A stretch of DNA of 64,000 nt from Candidatus Latescibacterota bacterium. Its GTDB lineage: Bacteria > Latescibacterota > UBA2968. Where the stretch lies: positions 6,080,001-6,144,000 of the forward strand of contig OZ240241.1 of assembly GCA_965198115.1 (NCBI GenBank), written 5' to 3'. Of this stretch, positions 1-16,582 are shown piece after piece (the stretch's first letter is position 1; each line of letters begins with the position of its first letter). The notes under the pieces were generated by a model. It was not told the origin of the DNA and ran no database searches. It worked only from the letters and a program-made list of their open reading frames with translations. A program made the translations under genes and the position numbers.

Positions 1-681
1 ACCGCACTGAACGGAGTCACCGCCGAGGTTTCATCCGGGGGCGCTCTGTGTCTTCTCGGCCCGAACGGCGCAGGCAAGACGACCCTGATACGCCTCATCG
101 CAGCACTCTCTCGGCCAACCTCGGGCACGATCCACGTAGAGGGTATCGACCTGTCCAAACAGCCCGAGCGAATCCGCCGCAGGCTCGGCGTTATTTCCCA
201 CCAGACCATGCTCTACGACGACCTCACCGCACGTGAGAACCTCCGGTTTTACGGCGACCTGTATGGGGTCGAAAATATGAACCACAGGATCGATCGCGTT
301 CTCGACAATGTCGGTTTGGCCGGAAACGAACATCAACGGTTCCGTACGTTCAGCCGCGGAATGAAGCAACGTCTGGCCATCGCTCGAGCGGTGCTCCACG
401 ACCCCAGCATTCTGCTCCTCGACGAGCCATTCACCGGTCTCGACACGGCGGCGCGAGACACGCTCGCTGCCAGCATTCTCGACTTTCGCGAGGAAGGTCG
501 CACCATCGTCCTCGTAACCCACGACCTCACGCAGGCCTTCGCCCTCAGCGACGAATTCATTCTTCTCTCACGAGGTCGCATCGTTCGCCACGGCAAGACC
601 GCCGACACAACCCTCGACGATCTACAATCCCTCTACCGGACCGCCGTCGACGCGGACACCACCCTCGAGCCCACCCAATGA
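1..681 (+). CDS. ccmA: Heme export ABC transporter ATP-binding protein CcmA (5' truncated by window)
   Basis: Frame is open from base 1. Walker A GPNGAGKT, signature FSRGMKQR, Walker B LLLDEPF. Lies upstream of ccmB/C/D-like genes. Confidence 0.9.
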   Translation, partial: TALNGVTAEVSSGGALCLLGPNGAGKTTLIRLIAALSRPTSGTIHVEGIDLSKQPERIRRRLGVISHQTMLYDDLTARENLRFYGDLYGVENMNHRIDRVLDNVGLAGNEHQRFRTFSRGMKQRLAIARAVLHDPSILLLDEPFTGLDTAARDTLAASILDFREEGRTIVLVTHDLTQAFALSDEFILLSRGRIVRHGKTADTTLDDLQSLYRTAVDADTTLEPTQ

Positions 682-784
682 CAGATTTTCACTTTCACTC
701 AGAGCGATCGGACGAAGAGATCGCCACGCCTGCTCTCCCGCTCGCCCAGTCTCCCGTTCACCCGCTCGGTACAGAGACGACCCC

Positions 785-1468
785 GTGACTCTCTTCACGA
801 GACAAACCCTCGCCATCCTCCACAAGGACCTCCGAATCGAGTTCCGTGGAAAAGAACGACTCAGCAGCATGATCTTCTTCGCGGCGCTCGTGCTTCTCAT
901 CTTCAGCTTTGCGCTGACACCCGGATCTGCTGCCATGGTCGATGGTGCCGGCGGTATCTTCTGGATCACGGTCGTCTTCTCCGGCTTCCTTGGTCTGAGT
1001 CGATCCTTCGCGCAGGAGCAGATCAACGATTGCATGATGGGGTTGCTGCTCGCTCCGGCAGATCGTGCCGCCATCTATCTCGGCAAGACACTCGGAAACT
1101 TTTTAACGATGACGCTGCTCGAGATCTTCCTGTTGCCCGCGTTCGCCATCCTGCTTAACGTGCCCGTTGTGAAGCCACTCCCCGGTCTGATACCGGTCAT
1201 CCTGTTGGGCACGTTGGGCTTCGCATCCGTGGGCACGCTGTTCTCTGCTATGTCCGTCAACACCCGTCTTAAAGAGGCGATGGTGCCGCTCTTGACGCTC
1301 CCGATCCTCGTGCCGGTCATTCTCGCGTCCGTTGAATCGTTCAACGCCCTTCTGTCAGGAGGGAGTCTTTCGTCTGTCGGGGCGTGGGTTCGCACTTCCG
1401 CGGCCTTCTGTTGTATTTTCTTTGTGACTTGTCTCATCCTGTTCGACTACGTCGTGGAGGAATCGTGA
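785..1468 (+). CDS. ccmB: Heme exporter protein CcmB
   Basis: KDLRIEFR N-terminal motif, about 6 TM helices, LLTLPILVPVI motif typical of CcmB. Confidence 0.9.
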   Translation: MTLFTRQTLAILHKDLRIEFRGKERLSSMIFFAALVLLIFSFALTPGSAAMVDGAGGIFWITVVFSGFLGLSRSFAQEQINDCMMGLLLAPADRAAIYLGKTLGNFLTMTLLEIFLLPAFAILLNVPVVKPLPGLIPVILLGTLGFASVGTLFSAMSVNTRLKEAMVPLLTLPILVPVILASVESFNALLSGGSLSSVGAWVRTSAAFCCIFFVTCLILFDYVVEES

Positions 1469-2178
1469 GTCGTCGATTCTACCTGTTGTCCACCGTCTTC
1501 GGCGCGCTCGCGCTCGTCGGCATGATCATCACGCCCTGGATGGCGCTGGTCCAGGCCGGTATCGAACAACAGATGGGCGTTGCGCAAAAAATCATGTACT
1601 ACCACGTCCCCTCGGCTTTCATGATGTATCTGGGCTTCTTCATCTGCTTCATCTTCAGCATTCTGTATCTTTGGAAACAGAACAAGCGCTACGATCTCTG
1701 GGCATCTTCCGCTGCCGAAGTCGGTTTACTCTTCTGTGTGCTCGTCCTTCTGTCGGGACCTCTCTGGGCAAAGCCCATCTGGAACGCCTGGTGGGTATGG
1801 GATGCCCAGCTCACACTCGTCTTCGTCACGTTCCTCATCTTCGTCGCATACGCGATGCTCAAGAGCTACAGCGAAGAGTCGATTCAGAGCGCCAAGTTCA
1901 GAGCCGTCCTCGGCATTATCGGCTTCCTCGACGTGCCACTCATCCACTACTCCGTCAAGCTCTGGCGCACCCATCATCCAGCCGTCGTCCGAGCCGACAG
2001 TTCTGGTTTACCTCCGGACATGACCAACGCCCTGATCGCCTGCGTACTGACGTGGCTCGCTCTGTTCTGCGCCATTCTGTTCCGTCGTGTCTCGGTCGAA
2101 ATGGCTCGAGACGAACTCGATTACCTGAAGGCCGAGATCCGAGACCGCAAAGCCATCCTCGGCCAAATGGCGACATAG
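1465..2178 (+). CDS. ccmC: Cytochrome c biogenesis heme-delivery protein CcmC
   Basis: GTG start overlaps the ccmB stop (GTGA). YYHVP motif, Trp-rich WAKPIWNAWWVWDA motif, WRTHHP. Confidence 0.92.
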   Translation: MSRRFYLLSTVFGALALVGMIITPWMALVQAGIEQQMGVAQKIMYYHVPSAFMMYLGFFICFIFSILYLWKQNKRYDLWASSAAEVGLLFCVLVLLSGPLWAKPIWNAWWVWDAQLTLVFVTFLIFVAYAMLKSYSEESIQSAKFRAVLGIIGFLDVPLIHYSVKLWRTHHPAVVRADSSGLPPDMTNALIACVLTWLALFCAILFRRVSVEMARDELDYLKAEIRDRKAILGQMAT

Positions 2179-2377
2179 GTTGGCGCACTCAAGCCCCGAA
2201 CGCGAAGTTTTCGCGGCCGACTGCGTACGACAGCTGCTCCTGAGTAGGTTTCGTGAGGAACAAATCGAATGGGCATTGTCCCATGACTTGCACACAACAC
2301 AATCGCAGGGTTTCACGGCCCACGGCTCACGGCCGACCGCCCACGACCCTTGCTTCACTACTGTAAACAGGTTCGCA

Positions 2378-2542
2378 ATGCAATTCCTCGAATACATGGC
2401 CGCCGCCTACGCCATCATCTGGGCTGCCATCCTTGTCTACTTCCTGATGTTGGGAAAGAAAGAAAAAGAGATCTGGGAAGAGATTCACGAGGTTCGCAAG
2501 AGATTGTCCGAAGGCGAAAACGCCCCAAGACCCGACGCATAA
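2378..2542 (+). CDS. ccmD: CcmD-family small membrane protein
   Basis: 54 aa; AAYAIIW single TM helix followed by a charged helix; position after ccmC. Confidence 0.75.
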   Translation: MQFLEYMAAAYAIIWAAILVYFLMLGKKEKEIWEEIHEVRKRLSEGENAPRPDA

Positions 2543-2644
2543 TTCGCCACTGCGTTCGACGTCACTCCTGGTTGATCTTGAATTCTCCGTGTTCTCCGTG
2601 CCCGGAGTTTATCCCGAGCGGAGTCGAGGGGTGGTAGGTTTTTC

Positions 2645-3406
2645 ATGGCCGTCACTGGATCCAAACGCATCCTCACCCTGAAAAAGCGAAAAGCCCGCGA
2701 GCGTGAGCGGGCTTTCTTGATTGAAGGGGTGCGTCTGTGCGAAGAAGCTGTTTCGTCAGCGCCCGACAACGTCGAGCAACTCATCTTCGCGCGGGACATG
2801 CTCGACAACCAACGACTCGCCGAACTCAAGTCGCTGGCGGAATCGAAAAACCTCACCGTTCAGCTCACCGACCGCCGGGCGCTCAAAGGCATGTGTGAAA
2901 CCGAGACGCCTCAGGGCGTGCTCGGCGTCGCCCGCATTCCCGACCGGGATCGTCAGGCTGCGCTCTCCTCCGGCCGGACCCTCGTCCTACTCGATCGAAT
3001 TCGTGATCCGGGCAATCTCGGACTTATCCTCCGTACGGCCGAGGCAGCGGGAGCTGGCGGGGTATTCCTCTTGAAAGGATCGGTCGAGCTCTACAATCCG
3101 AAGGTCGTTCGCTCCACGATGGGATCCATCTTCCGCCTTCCTGTCTTTTTGGATGAGCGCCCACCCAAACTCATCAGCGAACTGAAGTCCGTGTCGGTTC
3201 CGATCGTCGCCACTTCGATCGATGCCCCGTCCTTCGACGAAATCGACCTGCCCACACCACGCGCCTTTCTCCTCGGGAACGAAGCCTTCGGCGTAGACCC
3301 GGCGCTCCTTGAATCCGCGGACCACGCCGTTTCGATCCCCATGGCCGGACCCGTCAACTCCCTTAACGTCGCCATCGCCGCCGCGGTCCTGCTCTACCAC
3401 TCGTAG
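2645..3406 (+). CDS. TrmH/SpoU family RNA methyltransferase
   Basis: FLIEG, DPGNLGLILRTA, GNEAFG, IPM and SLNVA SPOUT motifs. Confidence 0.92.
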   Translation: MAVTGSKRILTLKKRKARERERAFLIEGVRLCEEAVSSAPDNVEQLIFARDMLDNQRLAELKSLAESKNLTVQLTDRRALKGMCETETPQGVLGVARIPDRDRQAALSSGRTLVLLDRIRDPGNLGLILRTAEAAGAGGVFLLKGSVELYNPKVVRSTMGSIFRLPVFLDERPPKLISELKSVSVPIVATSIDAPSFDEIDLPTPRAFLLGNEAFGVDPALLESADHAVSIPMAGPVNSLNVAIAAAVLLYHS

Positions 3407-3524: not shown

Positions 3525-4976
3525 ATGCAGGGATTCGTCGGGCCGCTTGCAGTCACCGGACTGTGCGTGACCGTCCTCTTTTCACCCGTTGAGGCGCAAA
3601 CCTCATTCGGAGCATCGCCCGACTCGGCTGTCGTGGACACGCTTTACTTCCACGATCCTTACGATCTTTCCGCTGCCGCGCCCGTCGACAGTTCGGATGT
3701 CTACAGCTCACCCGGACGTTCGATTCTATCCTTTCCACAGGTTCTCTGGGACGTCCTTGTCTATCCCATCGGCGAGTTCACGATCTACGCCGAACACGGC
3801 AAACTCCTTCAGCAGTACTATTCGTGGTTCACGAACGCCGACGGCACCATCGGCGTCTTCCCCAGCGTCGCCCTCGGGGGCGAAACGGGGACGGGCGGAG
3901 GACTTCGCGCATTCCACACCAACCTCTGGAACAAGGAAAAGATCCTCACCGGTCAGTACATCTACTCGGGTGGCCGAGGACAGACCGGGCTGGCAGCTTA
4001 CATCGATCCAGACCTGTTTGGATCGGGGCTGCACGGGATTATCGACGTGGATTTCCTCCGAACGCGCCACGACGATTCCAGCATCAACGCCGCGATCGAA
4101 GAGGACGACACCCGTGTTTTCCGTCTCGACAGCATCGACCTCACGAGCAGCCTGAGATGGCGTAGAAACCGCGGTCCGATGTTTCCTTACAAGCCCAATA
4201 CGCAGGCAGAACTGTGGGTAGGTTACAGCCGGCGTGACTTCCGCGCTTTCCGCGGTGGAACGGGCTTACTGACAGATCAAGGATCGACACCTGAGGCGCG
4301 ACGCCTACGCGGCATCGGATCCAACTACACATTGTATCGGGTCGGTGGACGACTCACCCACGACGATCGCGACTACAAACGACCCCGCGACAGCGTCATC
4401 CTCCCACTCAATTACAAACTTCCGGGCAGGATCGCCATCGAGCACGAGGGACTCTACTACTTCTGGCGGGACCTCGGCTATCCGGAAAGCGGGGGCACAA
4501 TCCAGGGCGAACTCGAGCTCAACCACGGATCCGACGATTTCCGATTCGTCCGGATGGGTGCAGAGCTACAACGCTTCTTCACACTCTTCTGGCAAAACCG
4601 GATTCTCGCGGTTCGAGCACGGCTCGATAAAGTCTCGTCCCTCGGGAACCACTTCGTTCCATACACCGAATTGAGACGACTCGGCGGTGGAAACTCCGCA
4701 CGAGGCTACCAACGGGGATTTTTCACCGGTGAAGGGGCCGTCATCATCAATGTCGAATACCGGTGGCCTATCTGGGATACGTGGAATGCCTATCTCTTTT
4801 GGGATGAAGGTCAGGTCTTCGACCGATTCGGCGACATCTCCCGGGCGGGGTTTACGACATCCGTCGGGGGCGGTATCGCGATTCGTACCGAAATCGGCTT
4901 GATCGCAAAGGTCCAGGTCGGCCACAGTGCCGACAGCGCGGCACGTGTGAGCTTTGTGGTCGGAGGGGGATTCTGA
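3525..4976 (+). CDS. Omp85/BamA-TamA family outer-membrane beta-barrel without obvious POTRA domains
   Basis: Signal peptide, LGGGNSARGY (VRGY-like lid loop), VEYRWPI, FWDEGQV, C-terminal Phe. Confidence 0.8.
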   Translation: MQGFVGPLAVTGLCVTVLFSPVEAQTSFGASPDSAVVDTLYFHDPYDLSAAAPVDSSDVYSSPGRSILSFPQVLWDVLVYPIGEFTIYAEHGKLLQQYYSWFTNADGTIGVFPSVALGGETGTGGGLRAFHTNLWNKEKILTGQYIYSGGRGQTGLAAYIDPDLFGSGLHGIIDVDFLRTRHDDSSINAAIEEDDTRVFRLDSIDLTSSLRWRRNRGPMFPYKPNTQAELWVGYSRRDFRAFRGGTGLLTDQGSTPEARRLRGIGSNYTLYRVGGRLTHDDRDYKRPRDSVILPLNYKLPGRIAIEHEGLYYFWRDLGYPESGGTIQGELELNHGSDDFRFVRMGAELQRFFTLFWQNRILAVRARLDKVSSLGNHFVPYTELRRLGGGNSARGYQRGFFTGEGAVIINVEYRWPIWDTWNAYLFWDEGQVFDRFGDISRAGFTTSVGGGIAIRTEIGLIAKVQVGHSADSAARVSFVVGGGF

Positions 4977-5953
4977 GCACCCGCCCACTGCTACCCATTC
5001 TGATCGGGCTGATGTTCGGGTGCGCGACACCCCTCCTCAAACCCGACGAACTCGTGCCCGAAGTGCAGGGTCCGAGCGTGATTCAGCCCGGCGCAGAGGC
5101 GATTCGGTTCGCCGTGTATGGCGACAACCGATTGGCTCGCGGCCGTGTCGACCGGGATTCACTCTCGTCACGGCGGCGGCGGCGGCGACGCGTTACGGGT
5201 GCCATCGCCGCAGGACAACCGGACTTCGTTCTTCACACGGGCGATCTCGTGGAACGGGGCGACGATCGAGAGCTCTGGCAGGCCTTTCTGAGTGACTCGA
5301 GACCCCTGCTTCGGCCTCGCTACTTCTATCCTGCCGTCGGCAACCACGAATACAAGGGCGATTTCCTGGAGGCCTTTCACGAAATCGCGCCCAACGGAGC
5401 GAAAAACGTCAAGGGCTATGCGTTCCGGGCAGGGTCTTCCTACGTGATCGTCTTCGATTTCTCCGCGGAGCCTCATCCGACGGTCGCCGACGGATTTCAT
5501 TCGGCTTGGCTAAAGGAGCGTCTTCTGGTCGCACAATCGGCGCGCTTCCTGTTCGTCGTCAGCCACCACCCACTCTATTCGAGCGGCCGGGGACCGGTAG
5601 GGCGTTTTCTGATCAGTCGAGGGGAAGGCGGCCACGCCCCGCGCAAAAAGGACATCGCACTGAGATCGATCTTGCGTCAGAATCTTCAACAACGGAAGAG
5701 GCGAGATCCGTCCGCCAGAACCGTCGTCCTGACGGGTCACAGTCATTTCTACGAACGCTACGTCGCCGACGGAATCGACTACGTCGTGACCGGGGGGGGT
5801 GGTGCGCCGTCTCACACCCCGACTCGCACAGCCCCGCATCGGAAAGAAGCCTACGAAGGAGATCACTTCGTGGAAATTTCCTGCGCGGATGACACACTCA
5901 AGATCGACATGATTCCCGTAGGTACGGGGGACTGGATTCAAAGGGCACGATGA
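4973..5953 (+). CDS. Calcineurin-like metallophosphoesterase, predicted lipoprotein
   Basis: GDNR, TGDLV, GNHE, HHP and GHSH metal motifs. An in-frame CTG at 4973 overlaps the upstream stop, follows GGAGG, and gives STRPLLPILIGLMFG-C (lipobox-like). The ORF track start is 5012. Confidence 0.8.
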   Translation: MSTRPLLPILIGLMFGCATPLLKPDELVPEVQGPSVIQPGAEAIRFAVYGDNRLARGRVDRDSLSSRRRRRRRVTGAIAAGQPDFVLHTGDLVERGDDRELWQAFLSDSRPLLRPRYFYPAVGNHEYKGDFLEAFHEIAPNGAKNVKGYAFRAGSSYVIVFDFSAEPHPTVADGFHSAWLKERLLVAQSARFLFVVSHHPLYSSGRGPVGRFLISRGEGGHAPRKKDIALRSILRQNLQQRKRRDPSARTVVLTGHSHFYERYVADGIDYVVTGGGGAPSHTPTRTAPHRKEAYEGDHFVEISCADDTLKIDMIPVGTGDWIQRAR

Positions 5954-7617
5954 GACGTCTTGCCCATCCCATCCTGCTCGTATTATTCGGCGCTTGCACA
6001 TCGTCCCGGCCGCTCGTCACCGACCCCATCAAATGGGTCGACCTCGACAACGCGCCCATCCCCGAGCCGGCCGAAGTCGTCGAAAACCAGATCTGGGATA
6101 TCGCGGACCACACGATCTTCTATCAGCTCAGAAAAGTCATCGATGTGGGGTGGTCGGGACGTCGAATCGGAAACGCCCTCGGGGTCGCCGGCCATCGCCA
6201 GGCCGACAACGTCAACGCGCTCGACGAAGCCCCTGCGTCATCCTGGTTCCAAAACCGACACTACTTCCGTCGCCTGACCCGAGAGGAGCTCCAGATCGGC
6301 CCGGGTATCGCTGCCCCGGATTCAGAGAACGGATTGGAGGTCATCGCTGGAAAGTTCGAAGGAGGCACGGCCGGCTTCACGATTCGAGACAGCAGGGGTC
6401 AGCTTTACCTGCTCAAGTTCGACTCCGAAGGCAACAACGAGATGGGGTCCGCAGCCGAGGTCATTGCCACCAAAGTTTTCCACGCGTGCGGATACAACGT
6501 GCCCCGAAACTCTGTCTATTACTTCGATCCCGCTAAACTCAAGATCGGAGAGAAGACGACCGTCCCCGACGGAAAAGGCGGCAAGCACCCGATGCTCGAA
6601 GCCGATCTGCAGAGCATCCTCGACAACATCATCCCGCAGATGGACGGTCGGCTCCGGTGTGTGGCCAGCGAATTCTTGCGGGGGAGACCCGTCGGGATCT
6701 TCAACTACCACGGTCGACGCGAGGACGACCCGAACGACCGCGTTTCGCACGAGCATCGGCGCGAGCTGAGAGGCCTCCGCGTCATCGCGTCTTGGATGAA
6801 CGACGCGGATCGTCGCGCGGCCAATACGCTCGACATGTATGTCACGAACGGCGATCGACGAGGCTACGTGAAACATTACCTGATCGACATGGGCTCCGCG
6901 TTCGGCAGCAACAACCTCATGCCGCATCTCCCGAAATACGGGAACGAATACGTGTGGGACCCCGGCAACGTCGCAAAGTCCCTCGTAACGTTCGGATTTT
7001 GGGAAAAGCCCTGGGAGCGGCCTCTTCCCATGCCCTACCCCGCGCTCGGCTATTTCGAGAACGAAACGTTCGACGCCGAAGGATGGGTACCCACCTACCC
7101 GAATCCAGCCTTCGAAAGGACCACTGGCCGCGACGGGTATTGGAGCGCGAAGATCCTCCTGGCCTTCACCGACAACGATATCGCCGCGCTCGTCGAAATG
7201 GGCCACTACAGCGACCCCGGCGCAGCAGCGGAGCTGACACGATTGCTCATCGAACGACGCGACGAAATCGCCCGGTATTGGTTCACCCGGGTCAACCCTC
7301 TCGATCGGTTTACGGTCGATCGGCGGGGCATCAGGTTCCGTGATCTCGCCATCGACGGCGGACTCGAATCCCAGAGGGACACACGCTATCGCTACCGGTT
7401 CACCGGCGACAGCGGGCTGCCTTCGGGCCCCTTCCTGTCGCTCGAACCAGGCCAAACCGTTGCTCTGCCCGCAGATCTCCTCGCGGGGAGGTATTACGGG
7501 ATCGAGCTTCAGACCATCCGCATCAACGACAGGACCTGGAGCAAGGCCACTCGGGTCCTTTTCTTTAAACACGGACCCGGGCGCTACCAGATCGTCCGAG
7601 TCGAGCGAGAAGACTGA
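5950..7617 (+). CDS. Predicted lipoprotein with atypical (HipA/PI4K-like) protein-kinase-like fold
   Basis: LVLFGA-C lipobox; Gly-rich GKFEGGTAG; LLKFD Lys; AEVIA Glu; catalytic-loop-like DADRRAAN; metal-binding-like YLIDMG. ATGA overlap upstream, TGATG overlap downstream. Confidence 0.65.
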   Translation: MRRLAHPILLVLFGACTSSRPLVTDPIKWVDLDNAPIPEPAEVVENQIWDIADHTIFYQLRKVIDVGWSGRRIGNALGVAGHRQADNVNALDEAPASSWFQNRHYFRRLTREELQIGPGIAAPDSENGLEVIAGKFEGGTAGFTIRDSRGQLYLLKFDSEGNNEMGSAAEVIATKVFHACGYNVPRNSVYYFDPAKLKIGEKTTVPDGKGGKHPMLEADLQSILDNIIPQMDGRLRCVASEFLRGRPVGIFNYHGRREDDPNDRVSHEHRRELRGLRVIASWMNDADRRAANTLDMYVTNGDRRGYVKHYLIDMGSAFGSNNLMPHLPKYGNEYVWDPGNVAKSLVTFGFWEKPWERPLPMPYPALGYFENETFDAEGWVPTYPNPAFERTTGRDGYWSAKILLAFTDNDIAALVEMGHYSDPGAAAELTRLLIERRDEIARYWFTRVNPLDRFTVDRRGIRFRDLAIDGGLESQRDTRYRYRFTGDSGLPSGPFLSLEPGQTVALPADLLAGRYYGIELQTIRINDRTWSKATRVLFFKHGPGRYQIVRVERED

Positions 7618-7800
7618 TGAACGACGAACAGAAGAATCCGATCGAACGACTGCTGGGGCTATTCACCAAAGTACAGGCGGGCGAAGGGACGACTTGCTTG
7701 CTGCTCACACTGAACGTCTTCGCATTGCTCACCACCTACTACATCGTCAAACCCGTGCGTGAGGCGCTCATTCTCACGGGCGGTGGAGCCGAGGTCAAGA

Positions 7801-8442
7801 GTCATGACCTCCGGCAAAGCCGGAGGCTTGAAAACTTGTGAACCGCTCAAAGCGGTTGGAAACCAAGCGCCACCTAAAGGTGGCGATTACCTGAAAATGT
7901 TGAGCTGGTCGAGACGCCGGTCCTCCCGCTCCTGGTTCTGGATATACTCCCGAACCGTCTGTTCATCCTTGCCAACGGTGGAGACCCAGTAGCCTCTTGC
8001 CCAGAAATGCTGCCCGGTGAAGTTCGACCTAACCTACGTCCCAGATAGTTCCGAGCAATGTGAATCGCACTCTTTCCTTTGATGAACCCTACCGTCTGAG
8101 CTACTGAGTGCTTCGGCGGGATCGAAATCAGCATGTGCACATGGTCGGATCGCAGGTGACCCTCTTCCACACGGCATTCCTTCTGTGCGGCCAAATCCCG
8201 AATCACCTCGCCCAGATAGCGACGAATTTCACCATACAACACTTTTCTACGATACTTCCGAACCCAAACAACGTCATACTTGCACTCCCAAACCGTGTGA
8301 CGTAGACTCCTTACATTGTTCATTAGAGAGCCTTCCTTCCGTGTGCTTTGAGCGGTCCACGGCAAGGGAGGCTCTTACATATTTCTGGAACTGTCAAACT
8401 CTGGGAGTCTCCCCGGCAGAGCCGGGGGCTTACCAAGGTTTA
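7801..8442 (-). mobile_element. IS200/IS605-family element (tnpA only, 642 bp)
   Basis: Subterminal hairpins CCTCCGGC-AAA-GCCGGAGG and CCCCGGC-AGA-GCCGGGG. Host frame is restored on removal. Ends are ambiguous by up to 3 bp. Confidence 0.9.
7887..8323 (-). pseudogene. tnpA: IS200 Y1 transposase TnpA, frameshifted by a 5-bp duplication
   Basis: HUH motif DHVHM. FWARGY and YIQNQ lie in the shifted frame. ACCTA-ACCTA at 8027-8036. Confidence 0.85.
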
Positions 8443-9637
8443 GTTATGCTGCGGCCGGACAGAGCATTCTGTTGCTCGGGGCCGTCCCGTTGTATGGTTT
8501 TCTCGCGGGCAAATTTGCCCGTCGCCGGCTGATTAACACCGTCACGTTATTCTTCGTGGCGTGTCTGGTCGTCTTCTACCTCCTGGCCCAGGCGAAGGTG
8601 CCACTCGGTGTCGTTTTCTACCTCTGGGTTGGCGTTTTTAACCTCATGGTCATCGCTCAGTTCTGGGCGTTTGCTAACGACATCTACAGTGTCGACGTCG
8701 GGAACCGCCTCTTCCCCGTCGTTGCGTTCGGCGCCTCTTCGGGAGCGGTTGTCGGCAGCGCTCTGGCCGAACGTCTGATCGCCCCGGTCGGCGTCTATCA
8801 GCTGCTTTTGTTGTCCGCGGGACTGCTTGCTCTGACCCTGCTCGTCACCAACGCCATCGATCGACGTGAGAAGACGCCTTCTGGCGAGGGCACCGTCGTC
8901 CAATCCGATGAACCACTTGGCGACGAAAATGCCTTCCTTCTCGTCCTGAAAATCGATACCTGTTGCTCATCGCATTCATGATCCTCGTGCTTAATTGGGT
9001 GAACACGACGGGAGAGTTTATCCTCGGCCGCACCGTCGCCGCGGCAGCAGCGCAGGCTGTTGCCGATGGCTCGTCCGGCGGCCTGAATGAAGCTCAGTTT
9101 ATCGGAAAATTCTACGCGGGCTTCTTCACAGTCGTGAACCTGGCGGGGATGGTCGTGCAGCTCTTCCTGGTCTCCCGAATCGTGCGGTTCCTGGGTCTCC
9201 GGGTTGCCATTCTCATCCTCCCGGTCATCGCCTTCGGCGGCTACGCGCTCCTGGCCTTTTTCCCGATCCTGGCAGTCGTGCGCTGGGCCAAGACCGCGGA
9301 GAACGCGACGGACTACTCGCTTCAGAACACGGTGCGGCAAATCCTCTTCCTGCCCACGACACGAGAGCAGAAATACAAGGCCAAACAGGCGATCGACGGC
9401 TTCTTCGTCAGGGCGGGTGACGTGCTCTCTGCGCTCCTCGTCTATGTCGGCTTGAACCTACTCACCTTCGGAACGGCAGATTTCGCCGTCTTCAACATGG
9501 TGCTCGTACTCGCGTGGATCGTCCTGTCCGTCCTCATCGCTCGTCACAATCGCCAACTCACCGAGGAAGACCGAGAAGCCGCCTAGCCCTTCCATCGAGC
9601 GGGTGCGTTCACAGACCCCGATTCCCTATTTCACTTA

Positions 9638-10931
9638 GGGTTTGCCACGAAATAAGTGCTGCACTTTTCAAGGTAATGATCTTACGCTCGGAGTGTGGAC
9701 GTCGAAACTCTCCGAACGAAGTATGAAGCCTTGGCTCCGGTGCTGACGGAACGCACGCGTCGTCTGTGGGCCGCCACGGAAGCCGAAGCGTTGGGTCACG
9801 GTGGGATCGCGATTGTGGCTCTGGCGACAGGAATGTCCAGAGAGCGGATCTTTCGTGGCATTCAGGAGTTGAGGTCGGACGAACCTTTGGACCCGGCTCG
9901 CATCCGGCGTCCAGGCGGCGGTCGTAAGCGGAAGGCCGACACGGACCCGACGCTGTGGCAGGACCTGAATGATCTGGTCGAGCCAACGACTGCGGGGTCG
10001 CCTGACGACAATCCTCTGAGATGGACATCGAAGAGCACTCGCAAACTGGCCGCCGAGTTGCAAGCGATGGGGCATTCGGTGAGCCCCAGGATCGTTGCCA
10101 ATCTCCTGCACGAACACGATTACACGCTGCAGGCGAATCGGAAGACAAGGGAGGGATCTGCACACCCGGATCGGGACGCTCAGTTCGTTTACCTCGATGA
10201 TCGGATTAGCCAGCAGCAGCAGCAGGGCCTTCCCGTTATCTCGGTGGACACCAAGAAGAAAGAGTTGATCGGCGACTTCAAGAATCCTGGCCGAGAATGG
10301 CGACCCAAGGGAGACCCGGAGCGTGTGAAGGTACACGATTTCATAGTGCCTGCTCAGGGCAAGGCGATCCCTTATGGAGTGTATGATCTGAGCCGTGATG
10401 AAGGCTGGGTAAGTGTCGGTATCGATCACGACACGGCCAGCTTCGCCGTGAATGCGATCCGAAGTTGGTGGAAGAACATGGGACGGCCCGCCTACGGCAC
10501 TTCGACGCATCTGCTAATCACGGCGGACGCAGGCGGCAGCAACGGCGCCAAGACGCGGCTGTGGAAGTGGGAGCTGCAGCGCTTTGCGAATCGCACTGGC
10601 CTGACGATCACCGTATGCCACTACCCTCCTGGCACTAGTAAGTGGAACAAGATCGAACATCGCCTGTTCTCCTTCATCGCTATGAACTGGGCGAGGCAAG
10701 CCCCTGGTCAGCCTGGCTGCAACCGTGAATCTCATTGCCGGAACGACCACTCAAGCCGGTCTCCGAGTACGCTCCGAGATCGACAAGCGACCCTACCCTA
10801 ACGGGGTCAAGGTGACCGATGAACAGATGACCCAAATCGATCTCACTCCGCACGATTTCCACGGCGACTGGAACTACACGATCCGGCCAATGGCTCAACA
10901 TTGAGATCGACCGTTTATTTATTCCGAACCC
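9638..10931 (+). mobile_element. ISAzo13-family IS, copy A (intergenic)
   Basis: Ends GGGTTTGCCACGAAATAA / TTATTTATTCCGAACCC, flanked by TA. Near-identical to the copy at 14424-16341. Confidence 0.9.
9695..10904 (+). CDS. ISAzo13 transposase (extra G near 10690, probably a sequencing error)
   Basis: ISVDTKKKE, ADAGGSNG, HYPPGTSKWNKIEHRLF; copy B is intact. Confidence 0.85.
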
Positions 10932-10977
10932 TAATTTCCCAATTTCCTAATAGTCCTTCTCCTCGCATCTTTCAGCC

Positions 10978-13671
10978 GTGGCACGCATCCTCGACATTCG
11001 AGCCGGGGAACTCGGCAGACTGATCCCGCTTACCCTGGCCTACGGCTTCGTCCTGGCCTCGATCTACGTCCTGAAGCCCGTTCGCAACACCCTCTTTCTC
11101 GATCGAATCGGGATCGAGCAGCTCCCGTATGTGCTCATCCTCGTGGCAATCGTGGGCGGCATTTCCGCAACCCTCTACACCCGCCTGACCGATCGTATTC
11201 GGATCGATCGCCTGATTCTGGGCACGTTTCTATTCCTCGCGACCAACCTCCTCCTGTTCCAATGGCTCTTTTCTTTCAACCACCCATCGATCTACTACAT
11301 CTTCTACGTCTGGGTCAACCTCTACGGCCTGCTCGTCGTCTCGCTGCTCTGGCTCCAGGCGAACGCCTTGTTCAACCCCCGCGAAGCCCGCAGGCTGTTC
11401 GGACTCATCGGAACCGGAGGAATCGGCGGGGCGATTCTCGGTGGCGTCTTCACGCGCTGGGCGGCCGACAACGTCGGCACAGAAAACCTGACGTTCGTCT
11501 GCGCGGGAATCCTGGTCCTCTGCGCAGGACTCGTTCGGGTCGGGGGCCGGGCCGACGGTGACGCGTCGCCCCCCCGACGCGACGACGAGATCGGCGAAAG
11601 CGCCTTCGGGATCATCTGTCGGGTCGGGCTCCTCAAGCGGATCGCCACCATCGCGGCCATCACCGCCGTCGTCGCTGCCGTCGTCGACGTCCAGTTCAAC
11701 GAAGCCGTCAGCCGAGCCTACCCCTCGAGCGATCAGAAAACGGCGTTCTTCGGCGAGTTCTTCGCGTATCTCAACGGGTTCGCATTCCTGTTTCAGCTTC
11801 TCATCACACCGCTCGTCCTGCGCACCGTCGGTGTGGGACCCGCCTTGTGTGTCCTGCCCATCGCGACGGCTCTCGGGTCAGGCGCGATCCTGCTCCTTGG
11901 CGGAATCGTCGGCGGAATCGCCGTAAAAGTCGGCGACATCGGTTTCAGACACTCCATCCACAAGTCCGCGATGGAGATCCTCTATCTCCCGATCCCGCCC
12001 GGTATCAAAAACCGCGCAAAAGTGCTGCTCGACACCACCATCGACAACCTCGCAACCGGCGTCGGCGCGATCTTCGTGCTCGTCCTCACGACCGTCTTCG
12101 GCGTGGCTTACGGCGATCTCGCCTACCTGACGGTCGGTCTCGTAGTCCTCTGCATCGGCGTCCTCGTGAGTACACGCCGGGCCTACGTCGATGCCTTCCG
12201 ACGTGGGTTGGAACGCCGCGAAATCGATGCGGACGCGTTTCGCAGCGACTTCAGCGAATCTTCGATCGACGAGACCCTCAACAACGCGTTGCAGTCACCG
12301 CAGGAGCGGCAGCTCCTCTACGCCATCGACATGATCGGACTGATGGGGGCCCAGCGATGGAGGCCTGCCATCCAACCCCTGATCGACAACCCACATCCCG
12401 CCGTACGGGCGGCCGTACTCCGAACACTGACCGAGATCCCGGCCAGATTGCCCGACGACATCGTCGATCGTCTGGTCGAGGATGACGACTTCGACGTCCG
12501 GGTCGAAGCAATCCGCCAGCGGGTCGCCGACAACACGGACGCCCTCTCCATCCTCCTCTCACACGGCAGGACGGATCTGAAAGTCTCGGCACTGGCCTAC
12601 GTTTCCCGCTACGGGTCAGGTCGGGAAACGGATCTCGTAGACGCCCGCCTGATCGAAGAACTCATCGGCCACGGCGAAATGGCACGTGTGCAGGTGGCCC
12701 AGGCCCTCGGCCGGATCGATCGGCCCGACCTCCTCCCATATCTCGATGCTCTGAAGGACGACGCCCTGCCAGATGTCTTCGAGGCGGCCACCCGATCCCT
12801 CGGTCTCCTCAGGCAAGACGCGCAGATTCCGTGGCTCATCGAAAAGCTGGGCGACGGCCGCTACAGAGCGGCTGCCCGCGACGCCCTGATCGATTTTGGT
12901 GACGATGCGCTCGACCCCCTCGTTCGGGTCCTCAAAGATGCGACCCATGAGCTGCGGCAAAGACAGTCAGCGGCACGCACACTCGGATGCATCCCATCGG
13001 CACGAGCCGTCAGAGGTCTGATCGAAACGCTTTCCGAAGCGGTCGAATCCGATCTTGCGTACGAAGCCATCAAATCTCTCAACAAACTCCGCGAGGCGGG
13101 GACCCACACCGACGTGGAGACGGAGTTCCTCGACCGCAGACTCACGGTGCAAATCGAGCAGTTCTACGAGAGACGCCACGCACGCCACCTTCTCGAAACA
13201 TCGCCCGATACACCGGCATTTTCGTTGCTGAAGCAGACCCTTTTGGAGAAATCAGACCGAACGCTCGAATTCGCATTCCGCCTTTTGGGGTTGCAGTATC
13301 AGCCACGCGATGTGTACAATGCCTACCTGGGTGTGACGGGTCCAGATCGCCGCGTTCGGGCCAGCGCGATCGAATTTCTCGACAACATCCTGCATCGTCG
13401 TCATACCGAACTCATCGTGCCGTGCCTCGATCCTCAGTCGATCGATGATCTGATCGTCTTCGGTGCCGGACGGTTCGGCCAGAAATTCTGGACGGTCGAC
13501 GACGTCGTTTCCTATTTTATACAGCAGAACGACACCTGGTTGCGCGTCTGTGCCGTTCACTGTGTCAAGGACCTTGGAGTTCCCTATCTTCGGAACCTCG
13601 TTGAGAACCGCCGAAACGACGCCTCCTCTCTCGTCGTCGAAACGGCGAAATGGGTCCTTCATCAGTCGTAG
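10978..13671 (+). CDS. NTT-family nucleotide transporter fused to C-terminal HEAT repeats
   Basis: N-terminal ~400 aa with about 12 TM helices, YVLKPVRNTLF, FNPREARRLFG and RAKVLLD; C-terminal HEAT-like repeats (VRAAVLRTL, RQSAARTLG, RASAIEFLDN). Confidence 0.88.
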   Translation: MARILDIRAGELGRLIPLTLAYGFVLASIYVLKPVRNTLFLDRIGIEQLPYVLILVAIVGGISATLYTRLTDRIRIDRLILGTFLFLATNLLLFQWLFSFNHPSIYYIFYVWVNLYGLLVVSLLWLQANALFNPREARRLFGLIGTGGIGGAILGGVFTRWAADNVGTENLTFVCAGILVLCAGLVRVGGRADGDASPPRRDDEIGESAFGIICRVGLLKRIATIAAITAVVAAVVDVQFNEAVSRAYPSSDQKTAFFGEFFAYLNGFAFLFQLLITPLVLRTVGVGPALCVLPIATALGSGAILLLGGIVGGIAVKVGDIGFRHSIHKSAMEILYLPIPPGIKNRAKVLLDTTIDNLATGVGAIFVLVLTTVFGVAYGDLAYLTVGLVVLCIGVLVSTRRAYVDAFRRGLERREIDADAFRSDFSESSIDETLNNALQSPQERQLLYAIDMIGLMGAQRWRPAIQPLIDNPHPAVRAAVLRTLTEIPARLPDDIVDRLVEDDDFDVRVEAIRQRVADNTDALSILLSHGRTDLKVSALAYVSRYGSGRETDLVDARLIEELIGHGEMARVQVAQALGRIDRPDLLPYLDALKDDALPDVFEAATRSLGLLRQDAQIPWLIEKLGDGRYRAAARDALIDFGDDALDPLVRVLKDATHELRQRQSAARTLGCIPSARAVRGLIETLSEAVESDLAYEAIKSLNKLREAGTHTDVETEFLDRRLTVQIEQFYERRHARHLLETSPDTPAFSLLKQTLLEKSDRTLEFAFRLLGLQYQPRDVYNAYLGVTGPDRRVRASAIEFLDNILHRRHTELIVPCLDPQSIDDLIVFGAGRFGQKFWTVDDVVSYFIQQNDTWLRVCAVHCVKDLGVPYLRNLVENRRNDASSLVVETAKWVLHQS

Positions 13672-13704
13672 GGCACCCGGCCAGACGGGACACGACGGCC
13701 CCAT

Positions 13705-14126
13705 ATGCTGACCGTCGTCGAAAAGGTCATCTCGCTTCAGAGCGTCGATATCTTCTCGGAAGTTTCAACCGAGCAACTTTCGCACCTCGCCCTGATTGCG
13801 AACGAAGTGAATTACGAGGCCGAGGCGGTCATCTTCGAGGAGGCCGATCCTTCGGACTCGCTCTACCTCGTACTCGACGGTCGGGTTCGCTTGCACCGTC
13901 AAGAGCTCGACGTGACCGTCGCAGCCGCGAACGGCGTCTTCGGAACGTGGGCACTCTTTGACGACGAACCCGGGTGGTCACGGCCACCACGCTCGAATCG
14001 ACGACCGTCCTCCGCATCGACAAGGAGAATTTCGTCGACCTGTTGGCTGACCACGTTCAGATCACGCAGGGTGTGCTCAAGGCGCTCGTCAACCGACTGC
14101 GCACACTCGTCGGACGCGTCTCCTGA
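13705..14126 (+). CDS. Stand-alone cyclic-nucleotide-binding domain protein (frameshift near 13968)
   Basis: LTVVEKVISLQSVDIF, SLYLVLDGRV, FGTWAL. Adding one C in a C-run gives EPRVVTA...LLADH...VS* ending at 14126. Confidence 0.82.
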
Positions 14127-14441
14127 TCGGGTTTTTCCTTCCGTTTCCGAATAACTAACGAAGGCACGCCACGATGGTAGAAAAAGGACAGCTGGTCATC
14201 GTCGATGACGAGGAAATGGTGCTCACGAGCATCAATTCCTTCCTCATGCTCGAGACGGAATACGATGTCTCGACCTTTACGTCGGCCAAAGAAGCGATCA
14301 CCTTCATCGAACAGAACGATGTCGACCTCGTCATATCCGACTACCTCATGCCAGAAATGGACGGTATCTCCTTTCTCGCAACGGTCCGAGACATCAAACC
14401 CGAGATCCCTCGCATCATCCTAAGGGTTCGCGAATAAATAA

Positions 14442-15057
14442 GGCTATATCCGGATCTCTCAACGAGATGAAGTGGGTGAAGGTGCCGTGGTTCCTGGCAT
14501 GGGGGCGCGGTTAGAGTGTGCGGAACCTCTTCGGAATCTGCTCAGGGATGTTTATGTCTCCGACGGTAAGGAAGATCATATCGTTGAATGCGTCGAGTGT
14601 GCGGAATCCGCTGGCTCGGTTCTTGACGATTTGGACGATTCGGTTGAGGCCTTCGGCGATGGCGTTGGTAAGACGCGTGTTCACGAATGCGAGGACGCCG
14701 AAGAAGTGCTGTCGCAGGGTCCTGACGAACTTTCGCAGGGGTTCAAGTCGACTTCTGAGTGCGGACGTCGTCCAGCATTTCAGGAAGCGTTCGGCAGCCC
14801 AGGGCGCTTTGTATTCCCAGAACTGCTCGAACTCGTCCTTGAGTCTCCAGGCTCTATAGATTCGGTAGTTCGCCTCCTCAAACCACCAGCTGACAACACG
14901 GAACCCCTTGAATCTCAGCAGTTTCGATAGTAATCTGCTCCCGGTCATAGGTCGCACCCCCTTCGCTTTGATTGTCCTACACACACAACCAAGCGTAGGG
15001 AACGATCTATGACCTTGTCATTCTATAGTTTCACCGTTGAGAAACCCGGATAGAGCC
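14442..15057 (-). mobile_element. Internally deleted ISL3 derivative (616 bp, non-autonomous)
   Basis: Both ISL3 IRs present; 8-bp TSD ATAAATAA; about 800 bp of the transposase deleted near 14875. Confidence 0.92.
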
Positions 15058-15075
15058 ATAAATAAACGGTCGATC

Positions 15076-16284
15076 TCAATGTTGAGCCATTGGCCGGATC
15101 GTGTAGTTCCAGTCGCCGTGGAAATCGTGCGGAGTGAGATCGATTTGGGTCATCTGTTCATCGGTCACCTTGACCCCGTTAGGGTAGGGTCGCTTGTCGA
15201 TCTCGGAGCGTACTCGGAGACCGGCTTGAGTGGTCGTTCCGGCAATGAGATTCACGGTTGCAGCCAGGCTGACCAGGGGCTTGCCTCGCCAGTTCATAGC
15301 GATGAAGGAGAACAGGCGATGTTCGATCTTGTTCCACTTACTAGTGCCAGGAGGGTAGTGGCATACGGTGATCGTCAGGCCAGTGCGATTCGCAAAGCGC
15401 TGCAGCTCCCACTTCCACAGCCGCGTCTTGGCGCCGTTGCTGCCGCCTGCGTCCGCCGTGATTAGCAGATGCGTCGAAGTGCCGTAGGCGGGCCGTCCCA
15501 TGTTCTTCCACCAACTTCGGATCGCATTCACGGCGAAGCTGGCCGTGTCGTGATCGATACCGACACTTACCCAGCCTTCATCACGGCTCAGATCATACAC
15601 TCCATAAGGGATCGCCTTGCCCTGAGCAGGCACTATGAAATCGTGTACCTTCACACGCTCCGGGTCTCCCTTGGGTCGCCATTCTCGGCCAGGATTCTTG
15701 AAGTCGCCGATCAACTCTTTCTTCTTGGTGTCCACCGAGATAACGGGAAGGCCCTGCTGCTGCTGCTGGCTAATCCGATCATCGAGGTAAACGAACTGAG
15801 CGTCCCGATCCGGGTGTGCAGATCCCTCCCTTGTCTTCCGATTCGCCTGCAGCGTGTAATCGTGTTCGTGCAGGAGATTGGCAACGATCCTGGGGCTCAC
15901 CGAATGCCCCATCGCTTGCAACTCGGCGGCCAGTTTGCGAGTGCTCTTCGATGTCCATCTCAGAGGATTGTCGTCAGGCGACCCCGCAGTCGTTGGCTCG
16001 ACCAGATCATTCAGGTCCTGCCACAGCGTCGGGTCCGTGTCGGCCTTCCGCTTACGACCGCCGCCTGGACGCCGGATGCGAGCCGGGTCCAAAGGTTCGT
16101 CCGACCTCAACTCCTGAATGCCACGAAAGATCCGCTCTCTGGACATTCCTGTCGCCAGAGCCACAATCGCGATCCCACCGTGACCCAACGCTTCGGCTTC
16201 CGTGGCGGCCCACAGACGACGCGTGCGTTCCGTCAGCACCGGAGCCAAGGCTTCATACTTCGTTCGGAGAGTTTCGACGTCCAC
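15076..16284 (-). CDS. ISAzo13 transposase, intact
   Basis: 402 aa with family motifs ISVDTKKKE, SKWNKIEHRLF and HGDWNY. Confidence 0.92.
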   Translation of the reverse strand: MDVETLRTKYEALAPVLTERTRRLWAATEAEALGHGGIAIVALATGMSRERIFRGIQELRSDEPLDPARIRRPGGGRKRKADTDPTLWQDLNDLVEPTTAGSPDDNPLRWTSKSTRKLAAELQAMGHSVSPRIVANLLHEHDYTLQANRKTREGSAHPDRDAQFVYLDDRISQQQQQGLPVISVDTKKKELIGDFKNPGREWRPKGDPERVKVHDFIVPAQGKAIPYGVYDLSRDEGWVSVGIDHDTASFAVNAIRSWWKNMGRPAYGTSTHLLITADAGGSNGAKTRLWKWELQRFANRTGLTITVCHYPPGTSKWNKIEHRLFSFIAMNWRGKPLVSLAATVNLIAGTTTQAGLRVRSEIDKRPYPNGVKVTDEQMTQIDLTPHDFHGDWNYTIRPMAQH

Positions 16285-16582
16285 ACTCCGAGCGTAAGAT
16301 CATTACCTTGAAAAGTGCAGCACTTATTTCGTGGCAAACCCTAACAGGCTATGCCGACAAAGAAAACGCCATCAAGGCCATCAACGAAGTCGGCCTGTTC
16401 CAATACATAGAAAAACCCTGGGACAACAACGACCTGCGCATCATTATCCGCAACGGTCTGGAAAAGAAGCTTCTCATGCAGCAACTGCAGGGGAAGATCG
16501 AGCAAATCAACAAAGCCTACTCCGAACTCCAGTCGATTCAGCAAGAAGTCCTCAAGACCTTCGTCTAGCGAAGGCTCCACCT

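Follow-up and report, generated by a model that had tools for sequence, protein, structure and literature searches.

An Omp85 barrel and an atypical kinase-fold lipoprotein at the core of a bacterial gene module, with a possible link from NTT carriers to envelope phosphorylation

A gene for an Omp85-family barrel and a gene for an atypical kinase-fold predicted lipoprotein, which we designated K1, form the fixed core of a gene module; NTT carriers and phosphatases are frequent, but not constant, companions of this pair. The module was analysed in a 64,000-nucleotide stretch of the genome of a Candidatus Latescibacterota bacterium (the window). An even chance is given to the reading that it is a conserved envelope module in which ATP exported by NTT carriers fuels phosphorylation in the envelope. 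The original prediction had put it forward as a candidate undescribed system, and no description of the module was found in a literature search whose coverage excluded most subscription journals.

Arrangement and condition of the locus

The features of the locus are as follows.
3525..4976, + strand: Omp85-family barrel, 483 aa (PF01103, E 6e-12)
4973..5953 (CTG start) or 5012..5953 (ATG start), + strand: calcineurin-like metallophosphoesterase (PF00149, E 4e-11)
5950..7617, + strand: K1, atypical kinase-fold predicted lipoprotein, 555 aa (predicted fold, motifs)
7617..7799, + strand: 5' fragment of the gene for the single-domain carrier (NTT/TLC), a pseudogene (67% identity to the intact NTT of locus L001 over its residues 1-63)
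~7800..8446, - strand: IS200/IS605-family element within the NTT gene (tnpA 7874-8365, PF01797, E 7e-25)
8447..9586, + strand: rest of the NTT gene, split over two frames (62-63% identity to the L001 NTT; TLC matches)
~9634..10934, + strand: ISAzo13-family element separating the carrier genes (PF07592, E 3e-115)
10978..13671, + strand: NTT-HEAT fusion, 897 aa, intact open frame (TLC E 5e-13, HEAT_2 E 2e-21)
13705..14126, + strand: stand-alone cyclic-nucleotide-binding (cNBD) protein, frameshifted (PF00027, E 3e-8)

All six genes of the original prediction are real, and all except the kinase have Pfam matches, but the single-domain NTT and cNBD genes are damaged. The start/stop overlaps that had been taken to join four genes are present in the sequence (CTGA 4973-4976, ATGA 5950-5953, TGATG 7615-7619); the fourth gene, that of the NTT, is however interrupted by the IS200/IS605-family element and is also frameshifted near 8950-8965. 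The NTT-HEAT and cNBD genes were likewise found on the same strand as claimed, but the former is preceded by the ISAzo13 element and the latter is frameshifted near 13965-13975, where two frames both match the L001 cNBD. Scans for promoters (3 vs 3.1 expected) and terminators (8 vs 8.8) were at chance level, and no RNA data set containing the locus was listed. Histidine kinases of the 7TMR-DISM type lie downstream of the module in the window genome, and one lies within the module at locus L210.

Both insertion elements are abundant in the genome, with 40 near-full copies among 71 matches for the IS200/IS605-family element and 74 among 83 for ISAzo13. Contigs of runs X1 and X2, which represent one sample and possibly the same source as the assembly, span both frameshifts without gaps and enter the IS200 element from either side, covering both junctions; no empty-site joint (the NTT gene without IS200) is listed among these contigs. 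An origin of the insertion and frameshifts in assembly error is not supported by the X1 and X2 contigs. The single-domain NTT of the window is a pseudogene and, because neither this carrier nor the cNBD gene is intact, the window copy of the module is probably decaying or reliant on NTT-HEAT alone.

The kinase-fold lipoprotein and its partners

K1 carries Cys16, a kinase domain at about 110-447 and an Fn3-like domain at 448-543. In a predicted model (pLDDT 95.5), K1 is a two-lobed atypical kinase fold of the Fam20C/PI4K/CotH type. The best match of the model among structures searched with Foldseek was Fam20C (E 9e-6), and Z scores were 14.3 for CtkA (rmsd 3.4, 215 aligned), 13.1 for Fam20C, 12.5 for PI4KIIalpha and 12.2 for CotH. 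The fold is thus shared with Fam20C/Fam20B, PI4KII, CotH, CtkA and HipA (Z 11-14) at 11-15% identity; the predicted lipoprotein signal, the C-terminal Fn3-like domain and the fixed link to an Omp85 barrel set K1 apart from the Fam20/CotH group. Fam20 and CotH kinases also act outside the cytoplasm, and Fam20C depends on the delivery of ATP to the ER/Golgi lumen.

In an alignment of 146 rows, the positions presumed to be catalytic were kept almost throughout (K156 in 139, E/D170 in 137, D287 in 141, N292 in 139 and D313 in 140); we take their roles from the motif pattern of Lys, Glu, Asp...Asn and a DFG-like Asp. K1 had no Pfam match at E<=0.1 and none in NCBIfam, its 146-row profile matched no PDB sequence, and no sequence match tied it to the Fam20C family model (PF06702) or to the CotH family proper. 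The Atlas returned only unnamed clusters at 0.98, and its matches to Fam20C, HipA_2, LepB_N and FJX1 at 0.77-0.79 are leads only.

A hydrophobic N-terminal stretch was present in 136 of the 146 family members, compared with 2 and 6 for control windows placed inside the proteins; none had a later TM-like segment. K1 has a lipobox-like LFGAC16, with Cys in the same column of 80 of 146 rows, and is a predicted exported lipoprotein. The predicted model, Foldseek, the motifs and the hydrophobic N-termini support the kinase fold and the export-type N-terminus proposed for 5950-7617.

The barrel at 3525-4976 has a signal-peptide-like N-terminus, PF01103 as its sole Pfam match and no POTRA match, and its profile matches the BamA/TamA barrels in PDB from position about 95 onward. 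This Omp85 barrel thus lacks POTRA and any further N-terminal domain, as does the 'noNterm' subfamily (Heinz and Lithgow 2014, PMC4104836). The same paper describes 'noNterm' and 'Metallo' barrels as similar and, in the latter, ties PF00149 to an Omp85 barrel, as in the present module. In the window the two are separate genes rather than a fusion, and they appear to work like a split analogue of 'Metallo' Omp85.

The metallophosphoesterase contains the motifs GD, GD, GNHE, HH and GHxH, and has an orthologue of 45% identity in the same gene position at L210; against PDB sequences nothing was found at E<=0.01. Its start is predicted to be CTG 4973, because GGAGG lies 6 nt upstream and the resulting lipoprotein-like N-terminus matches the L210 orthologue. 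The earlier identification as a metallophosphoesterase lipoprotein holds through the PF00149 match, with the lipoprotein part predicted for the CTG start.

Two further kinase families were encountered. The Bacteroidota 'Metallo' Omp85 proteins carry phosphoesterase, kinase fold and barrel in one chain, with the kinase fold lying between the other two and Arg at the usual Lys position; the main text of PMC4104836, by contrast, labels PF00149 a metalloprotease and does not contain the word 'kinase'. Membership of this middle domain in K1 was rejected (no K1 HMM match; hhalign 22.7%), and the two families are distinct. K1 itself occurred in 1 of 101 genomes of the Bacteroidota phylum sample, that one being the centre genome. 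A fusion of kinase and barrel exists in one protein (P0121). The second family, K2, consists of small kinases of exported type, and in the window genome it lies near a phosphatase lipoprotein and an NTT-HEAT gene. Four proteins are K2-metallophosphoesterase fusions; a single-protein query found no K2 in the other 80 genomes of the window's own phylum.

Gene neighbourhoods across phyla

The neighbourhood survey comprised 80 K1 loci from many phyla, with NTTs counted within the fetched flank and with opposite-strand shadow clusters (of histidine kinases, Ser/Thr kinases and module genes) excluded from neighbour counts. The barrel lies directly upstream of K1 in 71 of the 80 loci; the barrel match at L044 is an opposite-strand ORF and was scored as not adjacent. 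Cultured bacteria are among the carriers of the module, namely Paludibaculum fermentans (L058) and Sorangium sp. (L044). An NTT was present at 27 loci (24 within 3 kb, against about 0.2-0.7 expected from gene density) and a phosphatase at 26, counts that are partly circular in that kinase-linked loci were also the basis of both profiles (NTT and phosphatase). The NTT was absent from the fetched flank at the other 53 loci, and where at least 7 kb was available on both sides it was present in 14 of 45. The phosphatase was of the metallo type at 14 loci and of the PAP2 type at 13, with both at 1, such that two unrelated phosphatase folds occupy the same place by K1. The predicted co-occurrence across taxa thus held for the barrel and, as a frequent but not constant association, for the NTT and phosphatase; the cNBD gene was rare (5/80).

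Genome-wide tallies were made with our own alignment (A3), as PF03219 was too insensitive (4/101 genomes). Among 81 genomes of the window's phylum, 13 had an NTT at E<1e-100; all 13 had the kinase, within 10 kb in 11. The remaining 10 of 23 kinase-positive genomes lacked an NTT at this threshold, and all 10 have a more distant NTT. In Acidobacteriota, no NTT match was found in 2 of 12 genomes with a strong K1 match or in five weak-K1 genomes, which were scored as kinase-negative, and an NTT was present in 15 of 15 K2 genomes, within 10 kb in 6. At 10 of 16 fetched K2 loci there was no nearby NTT. Of 19 genomes carrying K1 or K2, 17 had an NTT, as did 5 of 41 genomes carrying neither (the unpublished G246 excluded). 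Fisher tests on the genome tables gave p of about 1e-8 to 1e-9, to which no weight was given because related genomes are not independent.

The carriers and the proposed source of phosphate donor

The carriers show clear homology to AtNTT1, PamNTT1 and the chlamydial carrier 9j3n (E 8e-44 to 9j3n and 3e-36 to 9j3j). The position of AtNTT1 K527 / PamNTT1 K446, Lys in canonical NTT1-type carriers, is Asp in the window's single-domain NTT and Thr in its NTT-HEAT. Among 24 kinase-linked single NTTs it is Asp in 18, Lys in 5 and Ala in 1, and the E245 equivalent is Gly in 18. The main kinase-linked clade thus differs from AtNTT1 and PamNTT1 in carrying Asp and Gly at these positions, whereas a smaller clade keeps the Lys; the main clade also has a Lys located four residues N-terminal to the K155 position. 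Intact members of the two clades are the NTTs at L001:11730-13061 (Asp) and L002:7620-8930 (Lys).

A K-to-E change at the K446 position was reported to favour ADP entry, suppress ATP entry and block Pi transport and, for ATP import, to lower the Vmax and raise the Km from 8.6 to 552 uM (PMC2606016); ATP binding is lost in AtNTT1 K527E (PMC3306366). Because of these effects, the Asp-clade NTTs may not be ATP carriers at all; NTT homologues with NAD or other nucleotides as substrates are reported, as are homologues with no detectable transport (Major, Embley and Williams 2017, PMC5381601). That paper describes NTT-HEAT(-cNBD) proteins of free-living bacteria with the gene order seen here, NTT-HEAT with the cNBD gene directly behind, the latter being frameshifted in the window. 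It proposes uptake, or exchange between compartments and cells, and leaves the function in free-living bacteria open; its main text does not mention the further components of the present module (barrel, exported kinase, phosphatase and a single-domain NTT paired with NTT-HEAT).

In the mechanism that we propose, the NTT carriers would move cytoplasmic ATP out and periplasmic ADP in, an exchange that by our own reasoning would run downhill in a free-living cell. K1, likely docked on the neighbouring Omp85 barrel, would use the exported ATP to phosphorylate an envelope target, and the predicted exported phosphatase would reverse the mark. NTT-HEAT with the cNBD probably serves as a regulated or partner carrier rather than a required part. 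The acceptor is perhaps a lipid or glycolipid head group, which we rate a little short of even; a protein is less probable though plausible, and a glycan or small molecule unlikely.

A broader version is offered tentatively, at somewhat below even chances: that many diderm phyla possess a bacterial counterpart of ER/Golgi lumenal phosphorylation. NTTs, some retuned from Lys to Asp for ADP in and ATP out, would feed at least two exported kinase families (with a third, fused, in Bacteroidota), paired phosphatases would erase marks at the outer membrane or surface, and cyclic nucleotides would exert control. The periplasm is commonly regarded as devoid of usable ATP, and envelope machines have been explained on that basis. 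If true, the coupling of a dedicated ATP exporter to exported kinases would overturn that view for several phyla, provide a first function for the NTT carriers of free-living bacteria, and reassign the 'Metallo' Omp85 subfamily as phosphoesterase-kinase-barrel proteins.

Among the alternatives, the best placed, although unlikely, is that barrel and kinase form an active envelope kinase whose donor arrives by another route (lysed-cell nucleotides, another exporter or polyphosphate), with the NTTs only recovering ADP or other products, or being accessory. No NTT lies nearby at two thirds of the K1 loci or at any of the 20 Bacteroidota long-Omp85 loci, and other membrane or phosphate genes occur instead: DUF4956 in L033 (with similar ORFs clustering in L034, L035 and L046), HD-PycTM in L190, L193 and L196, and polyphosphate kinase in L194. 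The preference of an acidic residue at K446 for ADP over ATP entry points the same way. The adjacency of NTTs to two separate kinase families argues against this alternative, as does the absence of the kinase-linked NTT type (E<1e-100) from all 58 kinase-negative genomes of the window's phylum.

It is improbable that the module is a scavenging unit. In such a unit, nucleotides or phosphorylated solutes would enter through the barrel, be trimmed or trapped by the phosphatase and the kinase-fold enzyme, and be taken up by the NTT. Nutrient scavenging is a common role of exported phosphatases of the calcineurin-like and PAP2 types, and the NTTs characterised up to 2017 were all from parasites or plastids and all for uptake. 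Yet a kinase outside the cytoplasm would still need a donor, the kinase-phosphatase fusions seen in two independent families fit reversible modification better, and neither a TonB-dependent receptor nor a nucleotide catabolism cluster was prominent among the annotated neighbour clusters.

Least probable, and very doubtful, is a sensing system with little phosphotransfer, in which the kinase fold binds periplasmic ATP/ADP and NTT-HEAT/cNBD and nearby histidine or Ser/Thr kinases relay the signal: the 7TMR-DISM kinases, a cytoplasmic Ser/Thr-kinase motif at 14 of 80 K1 loci (6 with an NTT) and the divergence of NTT-HEAT domains at canonical nucleotide-binding positions would suit it, but 139-141 of the 146 rows retain the catalytic Asp287, Asn292 and Asp313, and the partner phosphatases imply a phosphorylated product.

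The predicted kinase and the state of its module

The protein encoded at 5950-7617 had no sequence match in Pfam, NCBIfam or PDB. A model built from 146 aligned relatives (pLDDT 95.5) ranked Fam20C first in Foldseek (E 9e-6), and a wide structure search returned CtkA (Z 14.3), Fam20C (13.1), Hydra Fam20 (12.6), PI4KIIalpha (12.5) and CotH (12.2), with an Fn3-like domain at residues 448-543. Residues K156, E170, D287, N292 and D313 were conserved among the relatives; we take their roles from the motif pattern. A hydrophobic N-terminal stretch was found in 136 of the 146 rows; internal control windows gave 2 and 6. The model and motifs support the kinase fold that had been proposed for this gene, and the N-terminal stretches are in keeping with the proposed export signal. 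The gene is predicted to encode a protein of kinase fold whose N-terminus is of export type. This fold group comprises protein, glycan and lipid kinases, and the fold therefore leaves the substrate unnamed. The family, designated K1, had 2775 representatives (50% identity) at E<=0.001, 784 of these at 1e-30, and its named close homologues were mostly from Latescibacterota.

All six genes of the original prediction lay where it had placed them, and its three start/stop overlaps were confirmed in the sequence. The set was intact only in part: the frames of the Omp85 barrel, phosphoesterase, kinase and NTT-HEAT (nucleotide carrier) genes were open, and the single-domain NTT and the gene for the cyclic-nucleotide-binding protein (cNBD) were damaged, as follows.

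Lesions in the window copy of the module
about 7800-8446, IS200/IS605 element, splits the single-domain NTT gene
near 8950-8965, frameshift in the single-domain NTT gene
about 9634-10934, ISAzo13, ahead of the NTT-HEAT gene
near 13970, frameshift in the cNBD gene

The same frameshifts and IS junctions were present in contigs from two sequencing runs (X1 and X2) of one sample, possibly the source of the assembly, and the genome held 40 near-full copies of the IS200/IS605 element and 74 of ISAzo13. The window copy is partly pseudogenised and ill-suited to experiments.

The genome as a whole showed heavy IS expansion, with many ISL3-end matches besides these two elements and several interrupted genes near the window. 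At 14175-20720, a response-regulator-like gene (by eye) was broken by ISL3 and ISAzo13 and followed by two 7TMR-DISM histidine kinases, a type that also sits within the module at L210. Upstream, at 208-3406, lay ordinary genes without conserved association to the module: ccmA/B/C-like cytochrome c maturation genes (by eye) and a SpoU/TrmH methylase (Pfam).

Gene neighbourhoods of two kinase families

A motif scan of 3 of the 64 parts of the GTDB collection yielded 121 K1 loci (about 2600 estimated overall); flanks were obtained for 80, and the other 41 were left out of the counts. By title, the 80 came from Acidobacteriota, Myxococcota, Gemmatimonadota, Latescibacterota, Rhodothermia, Ignavibacteria, Zixibacteria, Eisenbacteria, Krumholzibacteria and Bdellovibrionales. 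The predicted co-occurrence held for the barrel, which in 71 of 80 loci directly preceded K1 on the same strand (70/76 where at least 600 bp of upstream sequence was available), and was partial for the NTT (27 loci, NTT-HEAT in 15), the metallophosphoesterase (14) and the cNBD (5). A PAP2 phosphatase was found near K1 in 13 loci, and both phosphatase types together in only one. Most lay within 3 kb of K1 (NTT 24/27, metallophosphoesterase 13/14, PAP2 11/13). Rough gene-density expectations were 0.2-0.7 loci for NTT, 2.0 for metallophosphoesterase and 0.3 for PAP2, a contrast inflated because the NTT and phosphatase profiles were built from these same loci. The NTT was absent from the fetched flanks of 53/80 loci, including 31/45 with long flanks on both sides, which speaks against a fixed system. 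One kinase-barrel fusion (P0121) was found among two longer matches. In G153 (L210), a genome of a different family, barrel, phosphoesterase, kinase, NTT, NTT-HEAT and cNBD followed the gene order of the window with open frames, a histidine kinase being inserted ahead of the cNBD.

Among 81 genomes of the window's own phylum, 23 had a kinase match and 47 an NTT at E<=1e-20. All 13 genomes with an NTT at E<1e-100 carried the kinase, within 10 kb in 11, a test that is partly circular because the NTT profile contains rows from the same group. In the remaining two (G004 and G022) the kinase is found at another site, and the barrel has stayed beside the NTT pair. In ten kinase-positive genomes, the NTT matches were all either partial or more distant.

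A second family of small, predicted exported kinases, K2, repeats the kinase-NTT link. Its locus in the window's genome is:

contig C1:3450722-3456644 (L201:2720-8615), minus strand, kinase, phosphatase lipoprotein, STAS-like gene and NTT-HEAT

This K2 protein (269 aa, signal-like N-terminus) matched the PI3/PI4-kinase family PF00454 below cut-off (E 1e-5; Atlas 0.98). Behind it come genes for a phosphoesterase lipoprotein of purple-acid-phosphatase type with fused HEAT repeats, for a short STAS-like protein (by eye) and for an NTT-HEAT protein, the last with a frameshift. K2 occurred in 15 of 61 Acidobacteriota genomes, all 15 with an NTT at E<1e-100, within 10 kb in 6; the 16 K2 loci fetched had an NTT in 6 and none in 10. 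Four proteins fused K2 to a metallophosphoesterase, three of them beside NTT-HEAT(-cNBD). An NTT was present in 17/19 genomes that had K2 or matched K1 strongly, versus 5/41 of the others (the unpublished G246 excluded, and five weak-K1, NTT-less genomes counted among the 41). These comparisons make a strong case for coupling to the NTT.

Five K2 kinases, most with signal-like N-termini, stood in tandem at L222:8419-12881, 2 kb from an NTT-HEAT gene. The window's genome and its congener G001 also carried a further (NTT-)HEAT and cNBD pair followed by a secretin gene (L203:7735-12224 and L217:2821-8538).

The envelope kinase module is real and widespread, and apparently undescribed. No description was found in the literature searched, including the available parts of PMC12419801, PMC9758233 and PMC13595192; subscription papers or supplements could contain one. 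The accessible part of Major et al. 2017 (PMC5381601) describes NTT-HEAT(-cNBD) proteins without a function and does not mention barrel, exported kinase or phosphatase partners.

A predicted kinase fold within 'Metallo' Omp85 proteins

Heinz and Lithgow 2014 listed 'Metallo' and 'noNterm' Omp85 subfamilies; the portion available (PMC4104836) terms PF00149 a metalloprotease and lacks the word 'kinase'. We chose 20 loci for their long Omp85 frames among 101 genomes sampled from the phylum of G041, which is Bacteroidota judging by the title of the centre genome. Eighteen of them encoded a protein of 1190-1340 aa with a barrel at its end, and 17 of these proteins also had a phosphoesterase match; the middle domain was common to 850-905-aa forms without that match. 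The middle-domain model (pLDDT 90.9) resembled PI4KIIalpha (Z 14.2) and, more closely, CotH (Z 15.0, rmsd 4.1, 256 aligned), suggesting that a third kinase-fold family sits unannotated in the 'Metallo' architecture. The domain has Arg at the usual Lys position. Phosphoesterase, predicted kinase fold and barrel share one chain and therefore form one natural unit. None of the 20 loci had an NTT, which counts against universal NTT supply.

Membership of the middle domain in K1 was rejected by family comparison. Eleven of the loci have flanking genes in common and are probably one clade. The proteins with the unannotated domain (L181-L197 and L200; e.g. L181:7739-11470, minus strand) neighboured HD-PycTM proteins, SdiA-regulated propellers, adenylate/guanylate cyclases, polyphosphate kinase and PAP2.

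The carriers and the proposed mechanism

The NTT profile matched the solved ATP/ADP carriers 9j3n (E 8e-44) and 9j3j (E 3e-36). By hand count in the alignments, K71, E161 and K443 of 9j3j had the spacing of AtNTT1 K155, E245 and K527 (offset 84), and K527 aligned gap-free with the D of 'RxGD'. Of 24 single NTTs, 18 had Asp at this position, 5 had Lys and 1 had Ala; the window's single-domain NTT had Asp, and most relatives in its phylum Lys. NTT-HEAT domains diverged more at these positions. The accessible part of PMC3306366 reports that AtNTT1 K527E lost ATP binding. Asp here would fit an ADP-in/ATP-out carrier and equally one that abandoned ATP, a reading that relies on mutants of distant homologues.

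The likeliest mechanism, to which we give an even chance, is one in which ATP would leave the cell via the NTT in exchange for ADP, a lipoprotein kinase docked on the Omp85 barrel would phosphorylate an envelope molecule, and the phosphatase would reset it. For this still hypothetical export mechanism, Fam20C and the ER carrier offer an analogy of an exported kinase supplied with ATP. Gene order and fusions suggest the barrel as kinase anchor. The acceptor may be a lipid or glycolipid, our preference because PAP2 can substitute for the metallo-enzyme, patatin-Omp85 genes adjoin some loci (L033 and L057 by Pfam, four others by related ORFs) and PI4K folds score well in the structure comparison; a protein target is almost as probable. 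That the kinase uses a phosphate donor other than NTT-supplied ATP is rather unlikely given the K1 and K2 links to the NTT, and would suit the NTT-less loci, where DUF4956 (L033) is a candidate alternative supplier. Scavenging in place of export is improbable, and a sensing role slightly more so.

At L033:7926-18182, without an NTT, lay a barrel, K1, patatin-Omp85, a 903-aa protein that joins kinase and Omp85 as in the Bacteroidota family, DUF4956 and an SdiA-regulated-like protein; similar ORFs were present in L034, L035 and L046, also without an NTT. At L056, L077, L081 and L092, cytoplasmic Ser/Thr-kinase genes lay near short (720-780 aa) NTT-HEAT genes without a cNBD match, possibly as an alternative form of regulation.
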